From the IMG/VR virus record IMGVR_UViG_3300009788_001732, positions 73,963 to 104,336 of that record: DNA of 30,374 nucleotides. The stretch is one strand, 5' to 3'. The notes below the pieces were generated by a model. The model did not search any database, was not told where the DNA came from, and saw only the letters and a program-made list of their open reading frames with translations. A program made the translations under genes and the position numbers. Below, piece by piece: positions 5,193 to 23,013 of the stretch (its first letter is position 1; each line of letters begins with the position of its first letter). This stretch comes from a virus. Lineage: Duplodnaviria > Heunggongvirae > Uroviricota > Caudoviricetes.

Positions 5193-5255
5193 GCGATCCC
5201 TATGTCAACAAAATATTTGTCGTATTGACTATAGTATAACCTGAACAGACGTATT

Positions 5256-9666: not shown

Positions 9667-10007
9667 AACTCATTGAGTTAGCGCAGTCGGACAAGGGTAG
9701 CACTCAGTTGAAGGTCGTGATTGACCAAATCAACTTTGTTTTCAAGCAACCACTGCAACCCACACTCATGGTAAGCATAGCCGGCGCTATGCTGCCATGT
9801 GTCGGCGACTACAACCAAGTGTTAGAAAGCTTGGGCCTAGAAGGCTTCGTTCTTTTGGATACGCCCAACGGCTCGAAGGCTGCGGTCAACCCAAAGCACA
9901 TTCTATTCTTTATGACACCGGAACTGGGGCTGTTCAATTTGATGTTTACCGGCAAAACCGGCTTAGTTGTTAAAGCCACTACGGCCGAGATGGAACAAAT
10001 GTTTTGA
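9663..10007 (+). CDS. Hypothetical protein built of two similar beta-rich halves
   Basis: LIEL...KVVIDQINFV versus FVLL...KAAVNPKHILFF; ATGA overlap. Confidence 0.7.
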   Translation: MKLIELAQSDKGSTQLKVVIDQINFVFKQPLQPTLMVSIAGAMLPCVGDYNQVLESLGLEGFVLLDTPNGSKAAVNPKHILFFMTPELGLFNLMFTGKTGLVVKATTAEMEQMF

Positions 10008-10032
10008 CACTCTAGCTTTCGTGTGATAGACT
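10004..10032 (+). promoter_or_regulatory. Sigma70-type promoter (unit 1)
   Basis: TTGACA-17-TAGACT. Confidence 0.75.
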
Positions 10033-10035
10033 AGA

Positions 10036-10198
10036 ATGTATTAGGTTCCGTAGGGAATCACTTTTTGCCGACCCGCCTGTCTGGCGGACGGTTTCGACAT
10101 TTTAGTTCTCATACGGTAGACTGGAGTGTGCATTATGTATTCGATTCCGTAATGGAATCACTTTTTGCCGTCCCGCCCTTCCTTCGGCGGGGCGGTTT
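10036..10198 (+). repeat. Two copies, 100 bp apart, of a double-hairpin element; candidate sRNA or leader
   Basis: Shared ATGTATT..RTTCCGTA.GGAATCACTTTTTGCCG.CCCGCC...GGCGG..CGGTTT; identical 17-mer at 10054-10070 and 10154-10170. Confidence 0.8.
10094..10122 (+). promoter_or_regulatory. Sigma70-type promoter (unit 2)
   Basis: TCGACA-17-TAGACT. Confidence 0.55.
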
Positions 10199-11492: not shown

Positions 11493-11530
11493 CTTTATGG
11501 TGCCCGTGATTTTCCTAGGAGGCTTAAAAG

Positions 11531-11824
11531 ATGCCACAAGGTATCAAGAATCAAGACACCCGCGTCGCGGAGTTAGAGGCGTGGATCAATGACCTGCACT
11601 CTGGTATGTTCATTAACTGTGTCTACTGCGGTCATCGGCACGGCCGTAGTCGTGAAGAAATACCAGCCGATACCTTGCGACGCCATATATCAATGTGCCC
11701 GAAACACCCAATGTCAAAGTTAATTGACGAAGTGCAAGATGCTATTATAATGATGGACAGTCCGAGTCAGCGTGGTTTGGCGCGGAAGAAACTTCTTGAA
11801 GCAGTTTTAGAAGCGAGGGCATAA
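11531..11824 (+). CDS. Phage C2HC-type Zn-binding protein
   Basis: INCVYCGH...LRRHISMCPKHP. Confidence 0.75.
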   Translation: MPQGIKNQDTRVAELEAWINDLHSGMFINCVYCGHRHGRSREEIPADTLRRHISMCPKHPMSKLIDEVQDAIIMMDSPSQRGLARKKLLEAVLEARA

Positions 11825-12223
11825 ATGCCTGTTGACTGGAATTGCGAAACAACATCACACATTCCACATTGTGACGTCCCTAAAAACCCTACAAGAAAGT
11901 TCCCAGGTATAGGTGAGCCTAGGCGAATTCGTGTGTCTATCTTGCGGTATGAGATTGGTATTCATTATTACGTTTCCGTAGAGGCCGAGAATAATCCGTT
12001 CTGGAATGACTCAGAACAATCGTGGGTCGTTACGAGTGATGACCTAGATGTCCGCGAAGATCACGAGTCAAAAAGGTTCGACAGCTTTAATCGAGCAGTA
12101 AAATGGCTGCACCTTTACTGTGTTAAACACTTCTCGGATCAGAAAATGTACAGAGTTGTTGATAAGTGGGAAGAAGACTTTGATTGGCTTGATCCAGAAA
12201 CGTATCCAGAAGAACTATGGTAA
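11825..12223 (+). CDS. Hypothetical protein
   Basis: Abuts the upstream stop. Confidence 0.7.
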   Translation: MPVDWNCETTSHIPHCDVPKNPTRKFPGIGEPRRIRVSILRYEIGIHYYVSVEAENNPFWNDSEQSWVVTSDDLDVREDHESKRFDSFNRAVKWLHLYCVKHFSDQKMYRVVDKWEEDFDWLDPETYPEELW

Positions 12224-12248
12224 TCCGCAACTGACTTAGGAGATCAAA

Positions 12249-12809
12249 ATGAACGCTACTATTAAACGTTTGATGGAACGCTTCAAACACAACATGCCAT
12301 TAACTTTGGCACAATTTCGTCGATATAGTAAGGACAATCAACGCCGTATCGTCGCGTGTAATGCTTTACGAATGTTGCTTGCAAATAAAATTCAACCCGA
12401 GCATGTCTATGTTGACGTGCCTTTTACTAAAGCAGCAGAGAACACTCAAGCAGCACAATATATCAAGCGAAGGAGCAAAGCTGATTGTGTTGTATGTGCA
12501 TTAGGTGCACTGTTTACCGGGCACGTAATGGCTCTCGACAACCGCACAGTGAAAGCCTTTTCCAATTCAGATAGGCATGACATCATCGGCGCACTATCCG
12601 GCGGGTTTGATGAAGACACACTTATGCTAATCGAGATTTACTATGAGAACTGGGACGATAATAGTTCGTCTCATGACTGGGATGCCGAAACACTTGCTCA
12701 CGCTAAACGTTTTGGCGATGCTGTTATAAACGACTATGTTTCGATGGAAATAATTCTGGAAAACATTATCGAGCACGGCGACTTTTACCCCTATGAAATG
12801 TCCCTTTAG
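12249..12809 (+). CDS. Hypothetical protein
   Basis: AGGAG RBS; CVVCALGALF motif. Confidence 0.75.
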   Translation: MNATIKRLMERFKHNMPLTLAQFRRYSKDNQRRIVACNALRMLLANKIQPEHVYVDVPFTKAAENTQAAQYIKRRSKADCVVCALGALFTGHVMALDNRTVKAFSNSDRHDIIGALSGGFDEDTLMLIEIYYENWDDNSSSHDWDAETLAHAKRFGDAVINDYVSMEIILENIIEHGDFYPYEMSL

Positions 12810-12830
12810 TGAGACAACAAGGAATCTGAT

Positions 12831-13439
12831 ATGCCAGACACACCCTGGCTCGGCTGGCACTTTCTTTCTAAAGACCGCCGCTTGCGAGGCGGCTCACGCG
12901 AGATTGTGAGAGCCGGTAGAACCTTAGACTTCGCCGGCCGCCCAAAGCTTCATGTGCACGGGTTCCATGCCAGTCGACAAGTTATCGACGCACTTATATA
13001 CGCCCCCGGCCCCATTGTCGAGCGAGTCGAACTTGGCGGCACCATTGTAACCGGCACTGGTGTAGCTGTCGCACAAACACGCACCACACTCTGGATGGCT
13101 GATGTGACAAGAATTTTACATGAGTTTACCTCTGATGTTGTAGAAGATTTACTTATCAATGCGCAAGTCAATGACCGTCGTTCCTTAGACTCGATTGACA
13201 TGAAGAGAAAATGGCTCGCCAACGAAGTGACTGACGAGGAATTGCGTGCTGCAAAATGGGCTGCAAAGGATGCTATACAGGACGATGCAAATTATATTGA
13301 ACAGATTGCCGCGTGGACTGCTTCATGGACCTCCGCGTCAGATGCTGCCGCTACCGTCGCACGGCTCACTGTAGGTGACGCTGCACGGGGTACCTATAAT
13401 ACCATGCTCGAAGCGCGTCTTTTTCAACTAGTGCCATAA
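12831..13439 (+). CDS. Conserved-looking phage protein with Ala-rich helical C-terminus
   Basis: GWHF...GFHAS...DALIYAPG..RVELGG...RT.LW.AD pattern recalled from phage proteins. Confidence 0.75.
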   Translation: MPDTPWLGWHFLSKDRRLRGGSREIVRAGRTLDFAGRPKLHVHGFHASRQVIDALIYAPGPIVERVELGGTIVTGTGVAVAQTRTTLWMADVTRILHEFTSDVVEDLLINAQVNDRRSLDSIDMKRKWLANEVTDEELRAAKWAAKDAIQDDANYIEQIAAWTASWTSASDAAATVARLTVGDAARGTYNTMLEARLFQLVP

Positions 13440-13633
13440 TGATTGACTATTCGCAGGTTGAGTTATGTATTCTCGCTCTCGCTAAGTCGAGTGGCGGTGG
13501 TGAAGACATTCATGCTCAGGTTGCCAGCAAGATGTACGATGTTTCGCTCGACGAGGTGACACCCGTTATGCGTCGCCACGCAAAGGATGTCAATTACGGC
13601 GTGATCTATGGGCGGCGTTTTGGGTTCAAATAA
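13439..13633 (+). CDS. 64-aa miniprotein made of DNA polymerase family A motif A and O-helix (motif B)
   Basis: DYSQVEL..LA, then GEDIHAQVASKMYDVSLDEVTPVMRRHAKDVNYGVIYG; TAATG coupling to the upstream gene. Confidence 0.85.
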   Translation: MIDYSQVELCILALAKSSGGGEDIHAQVASKMYDVSLDEVTPVMRRHAKDVNYGVIYGRRFGFK

Positions 13634-13646
13634 AGGGAGCTTTGAT

Positions 13647-13838
13647 ATGAGTACACAAAACGGCAAGGCACTAGTTGCACTGACAGAGCTTGATATGATT
13701 AGCCTTGGGGTACTTAAACTACGTTCCGGATTACTGGGCGTTGATTTGACGGCTGGCGTCGCAAGTGCCCTCGATGATTTACGTTCGTCTCTCGCTAACC
13801 TGCGTCATGAATTAGAAGAGGTAGGCGAGCTAGGCTAA
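13647..13838 (+). CDS. Small helical hypothetical protein
   Basis: GGGAG RBS before ATG 13647. Confidence 0.65.
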   Translation: MSTQNGKALVALTELDMISLGVLKLRSGLLGVDLTAGVASALDDLRSSLANLRHELEEVGELG

Positions 13839-13882
13839 TCTTATGCCAAGGCATAAGAATGTATAAGATTGGCGCGAGAAAA

Positions 13883-13954
13883 TGTCGGGAGATATTCACA
13901 AGTCCCGACAAATAGTAAGCTTTTCTCGGCAGATATTCACAAGTGCCGAGGAAA
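13883..13954 (+). repeat. Twin hairpins with identical 12-nt loop and different stems
   Basis: TGTCGGGA-GATATTCACAAG-TCCCGACA and TTTTCTCGGCA-GATATTCACAAG-TGCCGAGGAAA. Confidence 0.85.
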
Positions 13955-13984
13955 TCTTATCCAAGGCAAACCTGAGAATAAATA

Positions 13985-14227
13985 ATGAGTATGCAGTCAA
14001 TCAAACTCGAACCAAGCAGTCAGGCGGGTGGGAGGTTCTGTCCTAAGAAGCCGGTGGCTCACGTGGTGCCGGACGAGGATCAAAAGAGTTGCTATCTGTG
14101 GATTGGAGACGATGCGGCGGGAGGCGGCTGCTTCGCAACGCTAGAAGGCAACTCATTGCACGCCCTTGCTCTCGAAATTCTGAAATACAGGCCAAGAAAA
14201 CCGTCGCAATCTAAAGCCGCCGTGTAG
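13985..14227 (+). CDS. Hypothetical protein
   Basis: ORF track; strand consistent. Confidence 0.65.
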   Translation: MSMQSIKLEPSSQAGGRFCPKKPVAHVVPDEDQKSCYLWIGDDAAGGGCFATLEGNSLHALALEILKYRPRKPSQSKAAV

Positions 14228-14261
14228 AGTTTCGCTTTGTTCCGTAAGATACTGCAATGAT

Positions 14262-14289
14262 TTGACTTTGTGAATCGGCGCGGTATCCT
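14262..14289 (+). promoter_or_regulatory. Conserved phage promoter, copy A
   Basis: TTGACT-TTGTGAATCGGCGCGG-TATCCT (16-nt spacer). Confidence 0.75.
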
Positions 14290-14320
14290 TTAGTAACAGA
14301 GTAGATTTAAGGCACTTGAT

Positions 14321-14509
14321 ATGAAATGGCTTCGAGTCTTATTTTCCTGGCTTCCGTACCGCACTTGCGGATGGTGTGGTCGATGGTATCGATATGTGGG
14401 AGAAGGCATGAACACTAAGGAGGTTTGTTCATACATCTGCTACAAGCGGGCTGGACGAGCCCTCTTGAAGCAGAGTCTCACTTCCGCTTCTGAGTGTAAT
14501 TCAAGATGA
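14321..14509 (+). CDS. Small Zn-finger protein
   Basis: CGWCG...CSYIC; first gene after promoter A. Confidence 0.65.
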   Translation: MKWLRVLFSWLPYRTCGWCGRWYRYVGEGMNTKEVCSYICYKRAGRALLKQSLTSASECNSR

Positions 14510-14730
14510 GCAGCTATTTCTACAATCTGTTTTATCTGGCCGCTGGGCTAGCATTCGGATACTGGCTAGGAGTTCAGACGGGGTTGTTTCAACGAGCCTT
14601 CGCCTTAGGCCGCAAGCATTCCCGAAAGCGCCACCGAATTCAGCGTGGACAGCTCAGGCAGGCCCGGCTGATACTCAATAGGCGCATCGGCTTGACCGAC
14701 GAAGAAACCAGACGATACACAGGTTTATAG
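14506..14730 (+). CDS. Single-TM protein with Arg-rich tail
   Basis: ATGA overlap; hydrophobic N-terminus. Confidence 0.7.
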   Translation: MSSYFYNLFYLAAGLAFGYWLGVQTGLFQRAFALGRKHSRKRHRIQRGQLRQARLILNRRIGLTDEETRRYTGL

Positions 14731-14741
14731 AGGAGTAAACC

Positions 14742-14945
14742 ATGAGTAACTGCCCTATTAAAGAACAAACCGGCGACGGAGCTATTGTTGGCAGGTGTTG
14801 CTATCACCTACCGGACGGTATAACATGTCCTCGGCACGGAGATGTGTCAGAATACGTGAAACGGTTTGACGCCGGGGCAGGACTGACGCTAGAGAACAGC
14901 ATGCGCCGAGACAGAGGTGAATCACGATTGGAGCCTAAATCATGA
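14742..14945 (+). CDS. Small Cys/His protein
   Basis: AGGAG RBS; C...CC...CPRHG. Confidence 0.7.
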   Translation: MSNCPIKEQTGDGAIVGRCCYHLPDGITCPRHGDVSEYVKRFDAGAGLTLENSMRRDRGESRLEPKS

Positions 14946-15166
14946 CACAGACAAGCGACTCGTTGTCCAGATATCATGCACGAACATTAAAGCTGAAAGA
15001 AAATGGCGACAATCAGTACGACCGCGTAGAGTTTAAGTTGGCACATTGCGTAATTACCGTAGCCATCGGTAATGGAGGAACCCCCGGTGTGTCAATTTGC
15101 AAAATTGATGGCGATAACCTACTGCACGTTCAACCGGAAGCAAGCAACTCCATAACAGTGAGGTAA
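14942..15166 (+). CDS. Hypothetical protein
   Basis: ATGA overlap. Confidence 0.65.
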   Translation: MTQTSDSLSRYHARTLKLKENGDNQYDRVEFKLAHCVITVAIGNGGTPGVSICKIDGDNLLHVQPEASNSITVR

Positions 15167-15168
15167 CC

Positions 15169-15375
15169 ATGACCACGCAACAGACCATCTCGATATCAAT
15201 TATAGGGCTGGCAGTCATAACAATGCTTATTTTCTGTGTTCCCGAGCCATTTTACAGCGTCCCGTTGGGGATTGGACAAGCCTGTGGATTTGTGAGTGGT
15301 TTGTCTCTGGCACGTGTCGTGGGCTGGCAAAATGCGAAAAAGGACAAGCAGAACGCAGCAATATATTCCAATTGA
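15169..15375 (+). CDS. Two-TM small membrane protein
   Basis: GAGGT RBS; two hydrophobic segments. Confidence 0.7.
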   Translation: MTTQQTISISIIGLAVITMLIFCVPEPFYSVPLGIGQACGFVSGLSLARVVGWQNAKKDKQNAAIYSN

Positions 15376-15425
15376 GTAAGTGGATGAAATACATCTTAAA
15401 CAACCACTAGGCAAGGAGATAACCA

Positions 15426-15614
15426 ATGCCAAGCGAAAGAGACAGAGAGCAGGAAAACAACGCGCCGCAAGAAATACCCAACTACCAGGTGTCCTATCAG
15501 GTGTTCAACAAGGTAGTCGAGGAACTGATAAAACTCAACAGCGGCGACAGGCAGCGAGTTATAAGTGCCCTGCAAACATTTTTTGGCCTGCATCATAATC
15601 GAGCCGACTGCTAG
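15426..15614 (+). CDS. Small helical hypothetical protein
   Basis: AGGAG RBS. Confidence 0.65.
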   Translation: MPSERDREQENNAPQEIPNYQVSYQVFNKVVEELIKLNSGDRQRVISALQTFFGLHHNRADC

Positions 15615-15659
15615 CGAATTGTAGTGCGGATTACCTGACTAAATAGATGTGGAGATAGG

Positions 15660-16205
15660 TTGATGGCTCGCACGCGAAAGCCTTGTCCCGGATGTGGGGA
15701 GATATGTCAGTATCGGCCAGCAGCCGAAGTCTGTGGTAGTTGTAAATCGCTGATCAAACAAGGCCGCAAGTGTATCGATGAACAAGTTGCCGCTTGTGAA
15801 AATCAGCGGGTGCTGACAAAATTGCCACATAGTGCTCGGTCCCTACCTTACATTCGTAACTCCACAAATGAACGGCGCGAGTTCCAAAACGCTTTTTATA
15901 CCATAGTATTGGCGGTAAGCGAGCCGGCATCAAATGAAGTGTTACGGCAATTGCCTGAGCCATACAAAACGCCGATGATCGTTGAGAAATGTGATACTGG
16001 CTATCACGGCGGGCGTGAATGCTATATGATCGAACCAACACTGCTCGATGCAATGCAAAACCTATGGTACTCATCCGTGGCGATGGTTGACGGGGCGTAT
16101 AGGCGTGGCGTAGCGTCTGGAGAACAGTTGATTGCTCAACTAGCTGGCGGTGATATAACAATCGCCCAATTTGAGGAGCGATACGAACTATACACGGGAC
16201 CTTAA
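15660..16205 (+). CDS. Hypothetical protein with N-terminal Zn finger
   Basis: CPGCG...CGSC; GGAG RBS. Confidence 0.75.
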   Translation: MMARTRKPCPGCGEICQYRPAAEVCGSCKSLIKQGRKCIDEQVAACENQRVLTKLPHSARSLPYIRNSTNERREFQNAFYTIVLAVSEPASNEVLRQLPEPYKTPMIVEKCDTGYHGGRECYMIEPTLLDAMQNLWYSSVAMVDGAYRRGVASGEQLIAQLAGGDITIAQFEERYELYTGP

Positions 16206-16221
16206 AAACAAAGGATAGACG

Positions 16222-16338
16222 ATGGACTATAAAGATATACGGGAGTTTCGCAAGAATACAAAGGCACATTACCGATACAGACCACAAATGTTCGGAGGGC
16301 TCGGCTTACCCTTCCTGTTTTTGTTGCTATTGTACTGA
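16222..16338 (+). CDS. 38-aa peptide with hydrophobic end, possibly the frameshifted start of a longer membrane protein
   Basis: AAGGA RBS; the -1 frame continues open and hydrophobic to 16406. Confidence 0.4.
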   Translation: MDYKDIREFRKNTKAHYRYRPQMFGGLGLPFLFLLLLY

Positions 16339-16424
16339 ACCTAGCACTACTTGCCGGAGCCATATGGGTTGTCATTCAGGTTTTGCAATATACCGGGGTC
16401 CTCTAAACGCCAAAAAGAAACATA

Positions 16425-17003
16425 ATGCAACTGCTCATTCGAGATAATCAAGACAAGCTGCACGAGGTGAAGTTGCGGGACCCACTGGAATTTTACCGGT
16501 TTCGCCCGAAGCCGAGTAACGTATTGGTGTGGTCGCAAATTCTAGCAACCATGGAAAAGATTTTCGCCGCACAAGCAACATTTTCATCCATGTCTGCGGA
16601 AGCGAGTCGCTGTAAAAACGAATCGATGGCATGTTTGCTAAAAGATGTGGAAACTCTTGCTAAAGAGGCAGCTAATGAATGGCACTATCGACAGGGTATC
16701 ATTCCAGCTACGACACTCGAAGAAATTATTTTCAAGCATTTCAAGCCGTTTATCGAACGCCTAAATGACACACTGTCAACGAAGACATATACCACTGTCA
16801 AAGTTATTGGTGGTGACTTCAAAGTTAAAGAGGGTATAAAGTGGAGTAAGCGGTTGACGGCAGAAGAAATGCTGAAAGTCTCTAACTATCTCGAAGCCAA
16901 GTGGACAGGCATGCCGTACATGCTTTTCTGGCATGGGTATCAAAGCTCATCCGAACCTCAAGATATTTGGGCAGCAATGGAGATGCTAGGGACATTACCT
17001 TAA
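16425..17003 (+). CDS. Hypothetical protein
   Basis: 192-aa ORF; shares IIF.HFKP.I.R with 27091-27477. Confidence 0.7.
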   Translation: MQLLIRDNQDKLHEVKLRDPLEFYRFRPKPSNVLVWSQILATMEKIFAAQATFSSMSAEASRCKNESMACLLKDVETLAKEAANEWHYRQGIIPATTLEEIIFKHFKPFIERLNDTLSTKTYTTVKVIGGDFKVKEGIKWSKRLTAEEMLKVSNYLEAKWTGMPYMLFWHGYQSSSEPQDIWAAMEMLGTLP

Positions 17004-17022: not shown

Positions 17023-17583
17023 ATGAAGGTTTATACAACTGGGCAGGTCGCAAAAATCTGTAGAGTAAACGAGCGCGCTGTAAGAAAATGGTTTGACTCG
17101 GGCCGGCTCAAAGGCTACCGCATTCCCGGTTCACAAGATTATCGTATTCCTCGTAACTACCTGATCAAATTTCTAAAAGAACATGGGATGCTTGTAGGCG
17201 AGCTGGAGGATGCGATAATGACCAAGGTCCTGATTGTCGCTCACGATCAGGTAATGATCGAGAATCTGAAGCGCGAACTGGCCGAGTTATTCAAGACCTT
17301 GGTGGTGGATAGTGGCTTTGACGCAGGAATTCAGGTCGGGAGCTTCCGCCCAGATTGCATTGTCGTTGACTTTTCAATCGGTCATACTGAGGCGCTAAGG
17401 ATTTGTCGAAGTTTGCGTCGCAATTCGGAGTTTTCAGAGACCATTATAGTTGCCTTACTTGATTACAATTCGCCTTCTGACTTTGATCGTTGGAGTATCA
17501 ACGTGTTTAGAAAGCCGTTTGATACTGGCGTGTTGGCCGAGCGACTACAGACTCTCGTTGGTGGACCTGGTAAATCTTCATGA
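17023..17583 (+). CDS. Excisionase-type HTH plus receiver-domain regulator, planctomycete family
   Basis: TTGQVAKIC...KWFDSGRLKGYRIPGSQD.RIP..YLIKFLKEHGM; receiver with IVVDF and KPF; GGAG RBS. Confidence 0.9.
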   Translation: MKVYTTGQVAKICRVNERAVRKWFDSGRLKGYRIPGSQDYRIPRNYLIKFLKEHGMLVGELEDAIMTKVLIVAHDQVMIENLKRELAELFKTLVVDSGFDAGIQVGSFRPDCIVVDFSIGHTEALRICRSLRRNSEFSETIIVALLDYNSPSDFDRWSINVFRKPFDTGVLAERLQTLVGGPGKSS

Positions 17584-19666: not shown

Positions 19667-21100
19667 TCGCGCCCAAAAGTAGTCACTAAAGGGCCTACCA
19701 ATCCCTACAACTCCTCTATTCGTTGCAACCGAGATATCCAACCCACCCGTCACACCCACACCTACCACCCTGTCCAACCCCGCCGGTACACATGAACATA
19801 CGAACAGTACAGTATGTATCACAAACGAACGGTCCCACAATGGGTCTGGTGTACTCAATGTATCTAGCATACTCGAATTATGCGGAAGCGTCCGAAACAT
19901 GGTGGTCGACCGTCCAAATTGGAGCCGTTCAAACAAACACCATCAGCCAGGTGAGACCAGGCAATAGAGAGATTGACTGGATGTACAGAGGTACAGAAGT
20001 ATCGGCGTGGCCCGGGCGCCCGGCGCGGGCCGGCCAATGGTAGTAGTGGGTTTCCCCTAGGTGTAACACCTAAGCGCCAGCGCTGGCGCTCAGCGCTGGG
20101 CCGGCGCTGAACTGGCGCGGCGGCCGCACGGTGGTCGCCCCGCCGCAGCGCCGGGCCTGCGGTGGTCGGCCGAAACCACGCTGAATCGATTCAACTCGAT
20201 TCGGCGTAACATCTTACGCAATCTGCGTAGACAGTACCCCCAATCTGGGTGTATCAATTGTGCAACCACAAAGAGGTGAGGTGTACAAATGTATCGGAGT
20301 GGTGAACAGATGTCAACCACACCGATGGTGGCTACCTCCCCTATCAGAGGGGTAAAATAAGGGTCGATGGAGGGTCAACGCGTAGGGTCAACGCGGCCGA
20401 AAGGGTCGATTATCGGGTAAATAAGGGTCGATGAGGGTTGGATTTACCCCCTAAATGGGGGATTTTGTTACAGAATCGGCTCTTTTTCACCCCCATTAGG
20501 GGTACCTCTTCTGGGTGGGTATAAGGGGAAGTACCTACACTTCTGAAAAGTGTGCCATTTTGACTCACTTTTTACCCCTCTCATAGGGGGTTTTGATAGC
20601 AGATAAAAGTGCAGGTAAAGTGGAATATCACGATTTGGCGGGGTGCGCGCAGTTTTTGTTGAGCGCGGAGGGTCGATGGGCAGTTTAAATTATAGTGTAC
20701 AAGGGTTCATACGCCGATTCATAAGTCTTGCTTCTCATAGGGGTTATGACAAGAGGGTCAATAGAGGGTCAAGTTACTATAAGGGTTGAATTAAGAATGA
20801 CTCTCTTATCAATAATATGTATACGTTTTTAAGTAGTACAATAAAGCAACACGCGCCAATCGGTCCTTTTAGGGCTCTCAGATTCATAACCCCGCCGAGC
20901 GCTAAGACTTACACAAGGACCGATACCGACCCTTGCCCCTTAAACGCCTAGTTTGGCGCACCTATTCAGCCCATATCCGACCCTTTACCCAAACCACGCC
21001 GATACATCGCATCTAAGGCCCGAAGAGCAAACAGCAGTGTTTGAGGTCACCACAGGCTTAGAAAGCCATGAGCGGGCTCACCAGAGCCTCTGATCGTTCA
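19570..21100. other. Repeat-rich non-coding region where both gene blocks converge; origin or terminus/packaging candidate
   Basis: No credible ORF; at least 8 AGGGTC(G/A)A octamers; CCCC-N5/7-GGGG dyads; GC-rich palindromes; local C/G skew switches. Confidence 0.6.
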
Positions 21101-21336: not shown

Positions 21337-21477
21337 GAGCCATACTTTCATGAAAGTGCCAATGCTATCAATCTTATGTATGCTTACACCGAGGCATAAG
21401 ATTAAGGCGGCATGGTGCTCGATAACATTTACTCACTGTGCCTCATTGATACCGGTGCCAGGACCACGCCTTAATAA

Positions 21478-22929: not shown

Positions 22930-22932
22930 AAA

Positions 22933-23007
22933 CTCGCCCGGTAGGACTCGAACCTACAACCTGCGGATTAGTAATTACCGCTGCTCTGCCAATTGAGCTA
23001 CGGGCGT
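22933..23007 (-). tRNA. Atypical tRNA-like element, anticodon ACT (nominally Ser), short variable loop, no CCA
   Basis: D arm GCTC-AATTGGCA-GAGC; T arm GTAGG-TTCGAGT-CCTAC; 6-bp acceptor stem with A1:A72 mismatch; loop TT-ACT-AA; 2-nt bulge in the anticodon stem. Confidence 0.8.
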
Positions 23008-23013
23008 GCTACT

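Follow-up and report, generated by a model that had tools for sequence, protein, structure and literature searches.

Twin hairpins with the same 12-nt loop on different stems in a tailed phage: a possible two-site RNA signal

The translational operator of E. coli thrS contains two mimics of the anticodon arm, which are bound by dimeric ThrRS; the boxB hairpins of lambdoid nut sites, through which N exerts antitermination, have a 5-nt loop on a 5-bp stem and occur once per early operon, far apart and together with boxA. The targets of the ANTAR proteins EutV, NasR and AmiR are two small neighbouring hairpins with conserved loop residues, bound by a protein dimer (PMC3369931, PMC8934654). The tailed-phage genome analysed here carries, in an intergenic spacer, two hairpins, H1 and H2 (Table 1), that close on the same loop. 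Our preferred reading of this pair, which we hold only tentatively, is a plus-strand RNA element on which a dimeric or two-site partner would find the same loop twice, and which would thereby influence the orphan gene downstream.

As a precedent for such two-loop logic, the ANTAR dual-hairpin target (PMC3369931) seems the nearest working analogue, though the phage hairpins are not a member of that class. In both, differing stems carry the same conserved loop residues and one hairpin competes with an alternative structure; but ANTAR targets have hexaloops with conserved A1 and G4 and a second hairpin that overlaps an intrinsic terminator, whereas the phage loops are of 12 nt and no terminator is present. 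Membership was rejected on loop size, the missing terminator, the lack of a U-tract after H2 and the lack of an Rfam match. Among 20 neighbouring proteins scanned against Pfam none has an ANTAR domain; the receiver-domain protein encoded at 17023-17583 carries an HTH_17 domain, not ANTAR.

The thrS operator would share with the proposed element twin stem-loops placed before a gene, the showing of one loop twice to a homodimer, and control of translation, and the UUCACAA of the phage loop (13895-13901 and 13936-13942) fits the anticodon-loop pattern Y-U-NNN-R-N, with CAC (Val) as anticodon. Such a match is expected by chance, and the thrS loops are of 7 nt and lie beside the ribosome-binding site of the regulator's own gene, unlike the 12-nt phage loops, which precede an 80-aa orphan. 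The phage does encode a tRNA-Val(UAC) at 22932-23008 on the minus strand; its likeness to the CAC pattern of the loop is probably coincidence. With boxB the shared features would be a hairpin with a conserved loop in a phage early transcript, two copies per genome and recognition by a protein of the phage, but here the copies are 41 nt apart with 12-nt loops, and neither a boxA-like element nor an N-like gene was identified. The original prediction had offered both a two-site binding signal and an antitermination signal: the identical loops and pair-preserving stems leave the former as the reading that appears to fit best, while antitermination has no terminator here to act on.

The window, by which we mean the whole stretch of 30,374 nt that was analysed, comprises bases 73963-104336 of a 104,336-bp IMG/VR virus record (IMGVR_UViG_3300009788_001732) rated complete, with a GC content of 46.5%; portal, major head, helicase and primase genes mark the genome as that of a tailed phage. 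The HTH_17-plus-receiver gene at 17023-17583 encodes a protein with about 70% identity to one that occurs in hundreds of genomes of Planctomycetota (Pirellulales, Thermoguttaceae, Lacipirellulaceae), and this match supports a planctomycete host; it likewise supports a view of the phage protein as a captured host regulator. The twin hairpins sit inside a block of small, mostly unannotated genes, all of those around them on the plus strand, and most adjacent genes of this stretch abut; the spacer that holds the pair is 146 nt long. Both genes that flank it encode orphans, without homologues in sets of 5.8 billion and 1.84 billion proteins, the 63-aa protein matching only itself among the 1.84 billion representatives; the coding score of the 80-aa frame is weak, yet the highest of six. 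A PolA mini-protein gene (13439-13633) lies upstream of the 63-aa gene, which places the spacer one gene downstream of it, not two as had been supposed. Identical copies of the proteins of 12831-13439, 13647-13838 and 13985-14227 are encoded on two or three other public contigs (Logan, ENA; longest 35,050 bp), which means that other assemblies contain near-identical strains of the phage.

Table 1. Features of the twin-hairpin spacer and its borders (positions in the window)
Feature	Position	Strand	Description
Upstream gene, 63 aa, orphan	13647-13838	+	strong ribosome-binding site AAGGGAG; top coding score among six frames
Hairpin T0, 8 bp	13839-13858	+	UCUUAUGC, loop CAAG, GCAUAAGA; directly 3' of the 63-aa stop codon; no U-tract
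AUAAGA, candidate 5' strand of long-range helix P1	13863-13868	+	pairs with UCUUAU 13955-13960, enclosing H1 and H2
GAGAAAA	13876-13882	+	alternative partner for the H2 5' arm (UUUUCUC 13921-13927); used by the minimum-energy fold
Hairpin H1	13883-13910	+	arms TGTCGGGA / TCCCGACA, loop GATATTCACAAG; 8 Watson-Crick pairs
Hairpin H2	13921-13954	+	arms TTTTCTCGGCA / TGCCGAGGAAA, loop GATATTCACAAG; 11 pairs, sole wobble T13924:G13951
UCUUAU-CCAAGGCA	13955-13968	+	second copy of the T0 5' half; 3' strand of candidate P1; includes TATCCA 13958-13963
Downstream gene, 80 aa (78 aa if ATG 13991 is the start), orphan	13985-14227	+	weak ribosome-binding site GAG
Promoter-like site TTGACT-N16-TATCCT	14262-14289	+	begins the next gene block, after the 80-aa gene

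The stems of 8 and 11 bp (one G:U), 41 nt apart and with the same loop, had been described in the original prediction, and their coordinates and pairing were verified, as was the presence of TTATCCAAG at 13957. As RNA the loop reads GAUAUUCACAAG, at 13891-13902 in H1 and 13932-13943 in H2, with an A-U closing pair in each; the 41 nt is the distance between the two loop starts. A repeat search reports the shared part of H1 and H2 as a 24-nt direct repeat, TCGG[G/C]AGATATTCACAAGT[C/G]CCGA, with 92% identity. Perfect 7-bp stems with a loop of 8-16 nt occur about 70 times in the genome by chance, so that a single hairpin of this kind is unremarkable and the signal is the pair; the exact 12-mer loop occurs at two places only in the 104-kb genome, H1 and H2, and the genome scan that had been suggested likewise returned the stem-loop-stem motif just twice.

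H1 folds as RNA with -12.8 kcal/mol and a pair probability of about 1.0. Against shuffled controls the z-scores are -4.2 (H1) and -4.4 (H2) for RNA, -4.1 and -4.0 respectively for DNA; the whole spacer reaches z = -5.1, and the next 300 nt show no unusual degree of structure (z = +0.9). T0, immediately upstream, folds with -10.3 kcal/mol (z = -4.4, pair probability 0.9), and a terminator scan made no call on it. H2 has -16.0 kcal/mol as plus-strand RNA versus -11.6 as minus strand, an advantage of 4.4 kcal/mol that is owed to its G:U pair; as DNA, both strands are equivalent in hairpin stability. The G:U pair, the resulting plus-strand advantage and the plus-strand neighbours together lead us to read the pair as an RNA element of the sense transcript.

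Over the eight aligned stem pairs H1 and H2 differ at five positions, with no broken pair and no change in the loop. Two pairs are altered on both sides, each a swap of G:C for C:G (G13884:C13909 in H1 to C13925:G13950 in H2, and G13889:C13904 to C13930:G13945), and one on one side with pairing kept (T13883:A13910 to T13924:G13951, that is U:A to U:G). Five substitutions placed at random over the 28 aligned nt all hit the stem and leave every pair intact with P = 1.6e-4, a figure that assumes independent substitutions; with substitutions confined to the stem, P = 3.7e-3. H2 is lengthened by four more pairs whose sequence has no counterpart beside H1, and outside the core the two 41-nt units are, by our count, no more alike than chance, around a central 14 nt that is identical. 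Flanks so dissimilar show that this is not a plain recent tandem duplication.

That the stems differ at paired positions while pairing is kept, as the original prediction claimed, is thus borne out; its further step, that compensatory change is the signature of recognition, is too strong for two copies, since template switching can make such changes in one step (PMC8794818). Template switching during replication of quasi-palindromes can use one arm to rewrite the other, so that stems are extended and multi-base compensatory changes and perfect stems come from one event (PMC8794818), leaving, much as here, inverted repeats with 'compensatory' differences that need no selection for each pair. 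Under this mechanism the independent events fall to about two arm substitutions, with one conversion event besides, and by our calculation the loop would then stay untouched with P ~0.15, which is not significant. The history may accordingly be that of a generic intergenic hairpin that was copied and has no reader of its loop: it would protect or process mRNA 3' ends, or have no role, its arms kept paired by template switching and its loop identical because the copy is young. We think this possible, if doubtful, and nearly as likely as a two-loop RNA docking signal. Other short local duplications of hairpin-bearing regulatory DNA exist in the genome with their stems kept (for example at 10004-10198), three consecutive hairpins after a stop codon suit generic mRNA stabilisers, and neither homologue nor partner was found. 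An identical 14-nt centre between a linker and flanks that are alike only at chance level is, though, odd for a young tandem copy; template switching should yield perfect complements, not G:T at 13924:13951; and 12 nt makes a large loop for a hairpin whose role is purely protective. Template switching is, besides, a mutational mechanism and not a function, and it accounts neither for the G:U pair nor for a 14-nt centre that is unchanged between flanks with no relation to each other. These two features and the H2 stem extension, which is unrelated sequence, argue against a purely neutral history.

Relatives of the element were sought at several levels. Its DNA has no homologue in the GenBank phage collection; IMG/VR has no match for the hairpin with fixed stem ends, nor for the twin-loop pattern with free stems, and the latter was not found in GTDB contigs taken at one genome per species. 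Eight JGI/ENA matches to the twin-loop pattern were all discarded, being tandem or coding repeats of no relation to it. In IMG/VR the 14-mer core with S-N flanks has 99 matches, some with 6-9 flanking pairs, and every one checked is a single copy inside a long ORF, so we regard these as chance or coding context. A host origin of the motif was likewise dismissed: the 14-mer has 4 occurrences in 301 Pirellulales genomes, none of them in a hairpin, and is not enriched, and near-matches beside the host HTH-receiver gene are the start codons of that gene itself. A related capsid gene turned up at twelve loci, and the five of these records that were fetched and searched (13.8-79 kb) contain nothing that matches 11500-16500 at the DNA level, no homologues of the two flanking proteins, and no other twin hairpin with a shared loop except tandem-repeat arrays. 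A covariance model built from H1 and H2, the search that the original prediction called for, scores 48.9 bits on H1 and 48.2 bits on H2 and brought up no counterpart in the rest of the genome, in the capsid relatives (best match E = 0.09, in coding sequence) or in loci with the PolA mini-protein, the element being absent from all three of these. Rfam gave no match at E up to 10 on either strand of 13600-14300.

In the two-loop reading that we prefer, the spacer would act in cis on the plus-strand transcript between the two orphan genes. A promoter and terminator scan called no site in the spacer, which fits read-through transcription from upstream. Together the two stem-loops would dock, at two sites, a dimeric or two-domain RNA-binding factor encoded by phage or host; a complementary RNA as the partner is less likely. 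Its binding would hold H2 in place against the competing pairing of the H2 5' arm with GAGAAAA, and the partner might thereby set translation or stability of the 80-aa message. In the fold ensemble H2 has 0.68 and the alternative pairing of its arm 0.32, and in the alternative fold the weak ribosome-binding region of the 80-aa gene becomes base-paired to loop 2 and the H2 3' arm; alternative folds of this kind often arise by chance. Counting against a two-loop docking signal are its two copies only and the lack of any homologue in the searches, and no candidate for the RNA-binding partner was identified. The complementarity of the loop to the downstream leader ranks 94 of 418 (shuffle P = 0.08, not significant), and roles as an anti-ribosome-binding site or antisense seed were set aside for want of significance; the likeness of the reverse-complemented loop to the spacer box of the promoter at 14262 is limited to that one promoter. 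Addition of the long-range helix P1 moves the energy from -38.1 to -39.4 kcal/mol, with pair probabilities of 0.3-0.39, and it could, in this model of the fold, close H1 and H2 into a Y-shaped domain.

Should the loops have a specific reader, loop and reader would make up a new recognition pair, RNA-protein or RNA-RNA, among phages of Planctomycetota, a phylum in which gene regulation and phage biology are almost unexplored. It is rather unlikely, in our estimate, that the pair is the earliest known example of a dual-loop RNA recognition element, so far uncatalogued, of planctomycete phages, in which a dimeric regulator from phage or host would read the two GAUAUUCACAAG copies and switch an early orphan gene, and which would be one instance of a wider phage design that shows the same loop twice on different stems. 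The element is a single candidate for which no relatives were found, and it is chiefly of use as a defined 72-nt bait in pull-down or reporter work, if phage or host can one day be grown.

The same repeat could instead be read as duplex DNA. A regulator might occupy the 24-bp repeat twice, about four helical turns apart, and control the 80-aa gene, the downstream site lying over a weak promoter made up of the loop-2 TTCACA (13936-13941) as -35, N16, and TATCCA (13958-13963). This combination matches the phage TTGACT-N16-TATCCT family at 9/12 with the same spacer, and the 41-bp spacing puts the two sites on the same helix face; other direct-repeat pairs at 37-38 nt spacing exist in non-coding DNA of this genome, and the 80-aa gene is a lone orphan followed by a fresh promoter. 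Yet a 9/12 match somewhere in a 146-nt spacer has P ~0.06 by our calculation, the -10 candidate is without the near-invariant final T, and no promoter was called there by the scan. Recognition by a dimer bound to inverted arms predicts conserved arms around a free centre, the reverse of what is observed; the half-site centres, about 18 bp apart, are off-phase, and duplex recognition gives no reason for the two arms of one site to change in step. A conserved centre with co-varying arms points to intrastrand pairing, not to a duplex operator read by a dimer, and we consider a pair of duplex sites distinctly unlikely.

Less probable again is a small RNA of about 125 nt (13839-13962), derived from the 3' UTR or independently transcribed, in which T0 and the Y-shaped domain would form the body and the two loops redundant seeds against host or phage mRNA. 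Small RNAs with repeated identical loop motifs are known (LhrC, RsaE, CsrB-type), the spacer is compactly structured, and the candidate helix P1 encloses both hairpins. Neither a promoter nor a U-tract terminator was called, however; complementarity to the phage genome does not go beyond chance, the top sites being a 10-mer within the body of a gene and an 11-mer on the non-coding strand, and the 14-mer shows no enrichment among the 301 genomes of the host order.

The original prediction had also raised a DnaA-related or cruciform element of replication, and this did not hold up. Such a signal in single-stranded or extruded DNA might comprise DnaA boxes, a primase or single-strand initiation signal, an HUH nuclease site or a cruciform. 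The loop does contain ATATTCACA, one mismatch from TTWTNCACA, with TTATCCAAG following, the DNA hairpins are stable on both strands, and GATATT and CTTG are reminiscent of rolling-circle nick sites. But the mismatch of ATATTCACA falls at position 1 of this already relaxed consensus and TTATCCAAG has two; TTWTNCACA itself has 13 matches, scattered over the genome, and TTATCCACA with at most one mismatch or indel is frequent (61 sites listed). With 40% GC (genome 46.5%) the spacer is not AT-rich and does not rank with the lowest windows, the skew minimum is at 5209 in the window with no turning point near the spacer, and helicase and primase genes are 50-60 kb away. A 12-nt loop would be poor for cruciform extrusion, and the G:T pair weakens the DNA stem. 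A DnaA-box cluster or origin was rejected on consensus, GC, skew and gene distance, and we rate a replication signal of any of these kinds as very improbable.

Other element classes were also discarded. An intrinsic (Rho-independent) terminator would have a GC-rich stem, a loop of 3-8 nt, not 12, and a plus-strand U-tract, which is missing, and the scan made no such call; canonical terminators are found elsewhere in the phage, at 20447, 20576 and 21117. Repeats of a type III toxin-antitoxin system or a CRISPR mini-array, which would call for near-identical whole units in tandem beside a toxin or cas gene or for spacers of at least about 30 nt, were rejected because only 24-28 of the 41 nt are repeated, with a 13-nt gap, and the downstream protein is the 80-aa orphan. 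Nor is this a peptide repeat: the two loops are read in different frames of a 54-aa open frame (13882-14046) that starts at the base of H1, crosses both hairpins and overlaps the 80-aa gene, and whose coding score does not exceed the score for the 80-aa frame.

Several further repeats were seen. The spacer has a second direct repeat, CTTATGCCAAGGCA at 13840-13853, in the 5' half of T0, and CTTAT-CCAAGGCA at 13956-13968, just past H2. A 9-bp inverted repeat at 21370-21403, AATCTTATG...CATAAGATT, is built of ATCTTAT/ATAAGAT words that are found three times in the twin-hairpin spacer as well. The region 10004-10198 consists of two tandem units about 100 bp apart, each with a promoter-like site and two hairpins, and the stem of the first hairpin is kept through a G:U versus A:U difference, making this another local duplication of a structured regulatory unit. 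Two direct-repeat pairs, 29298-29314/29335-29351 and 21474-21491/21512-21529, have spacings of 37-38 nt, near the 41 nt of the twin hairpins, with no hairpin in either; the former lies in apparently non-coding DNA near a promoter-like site.
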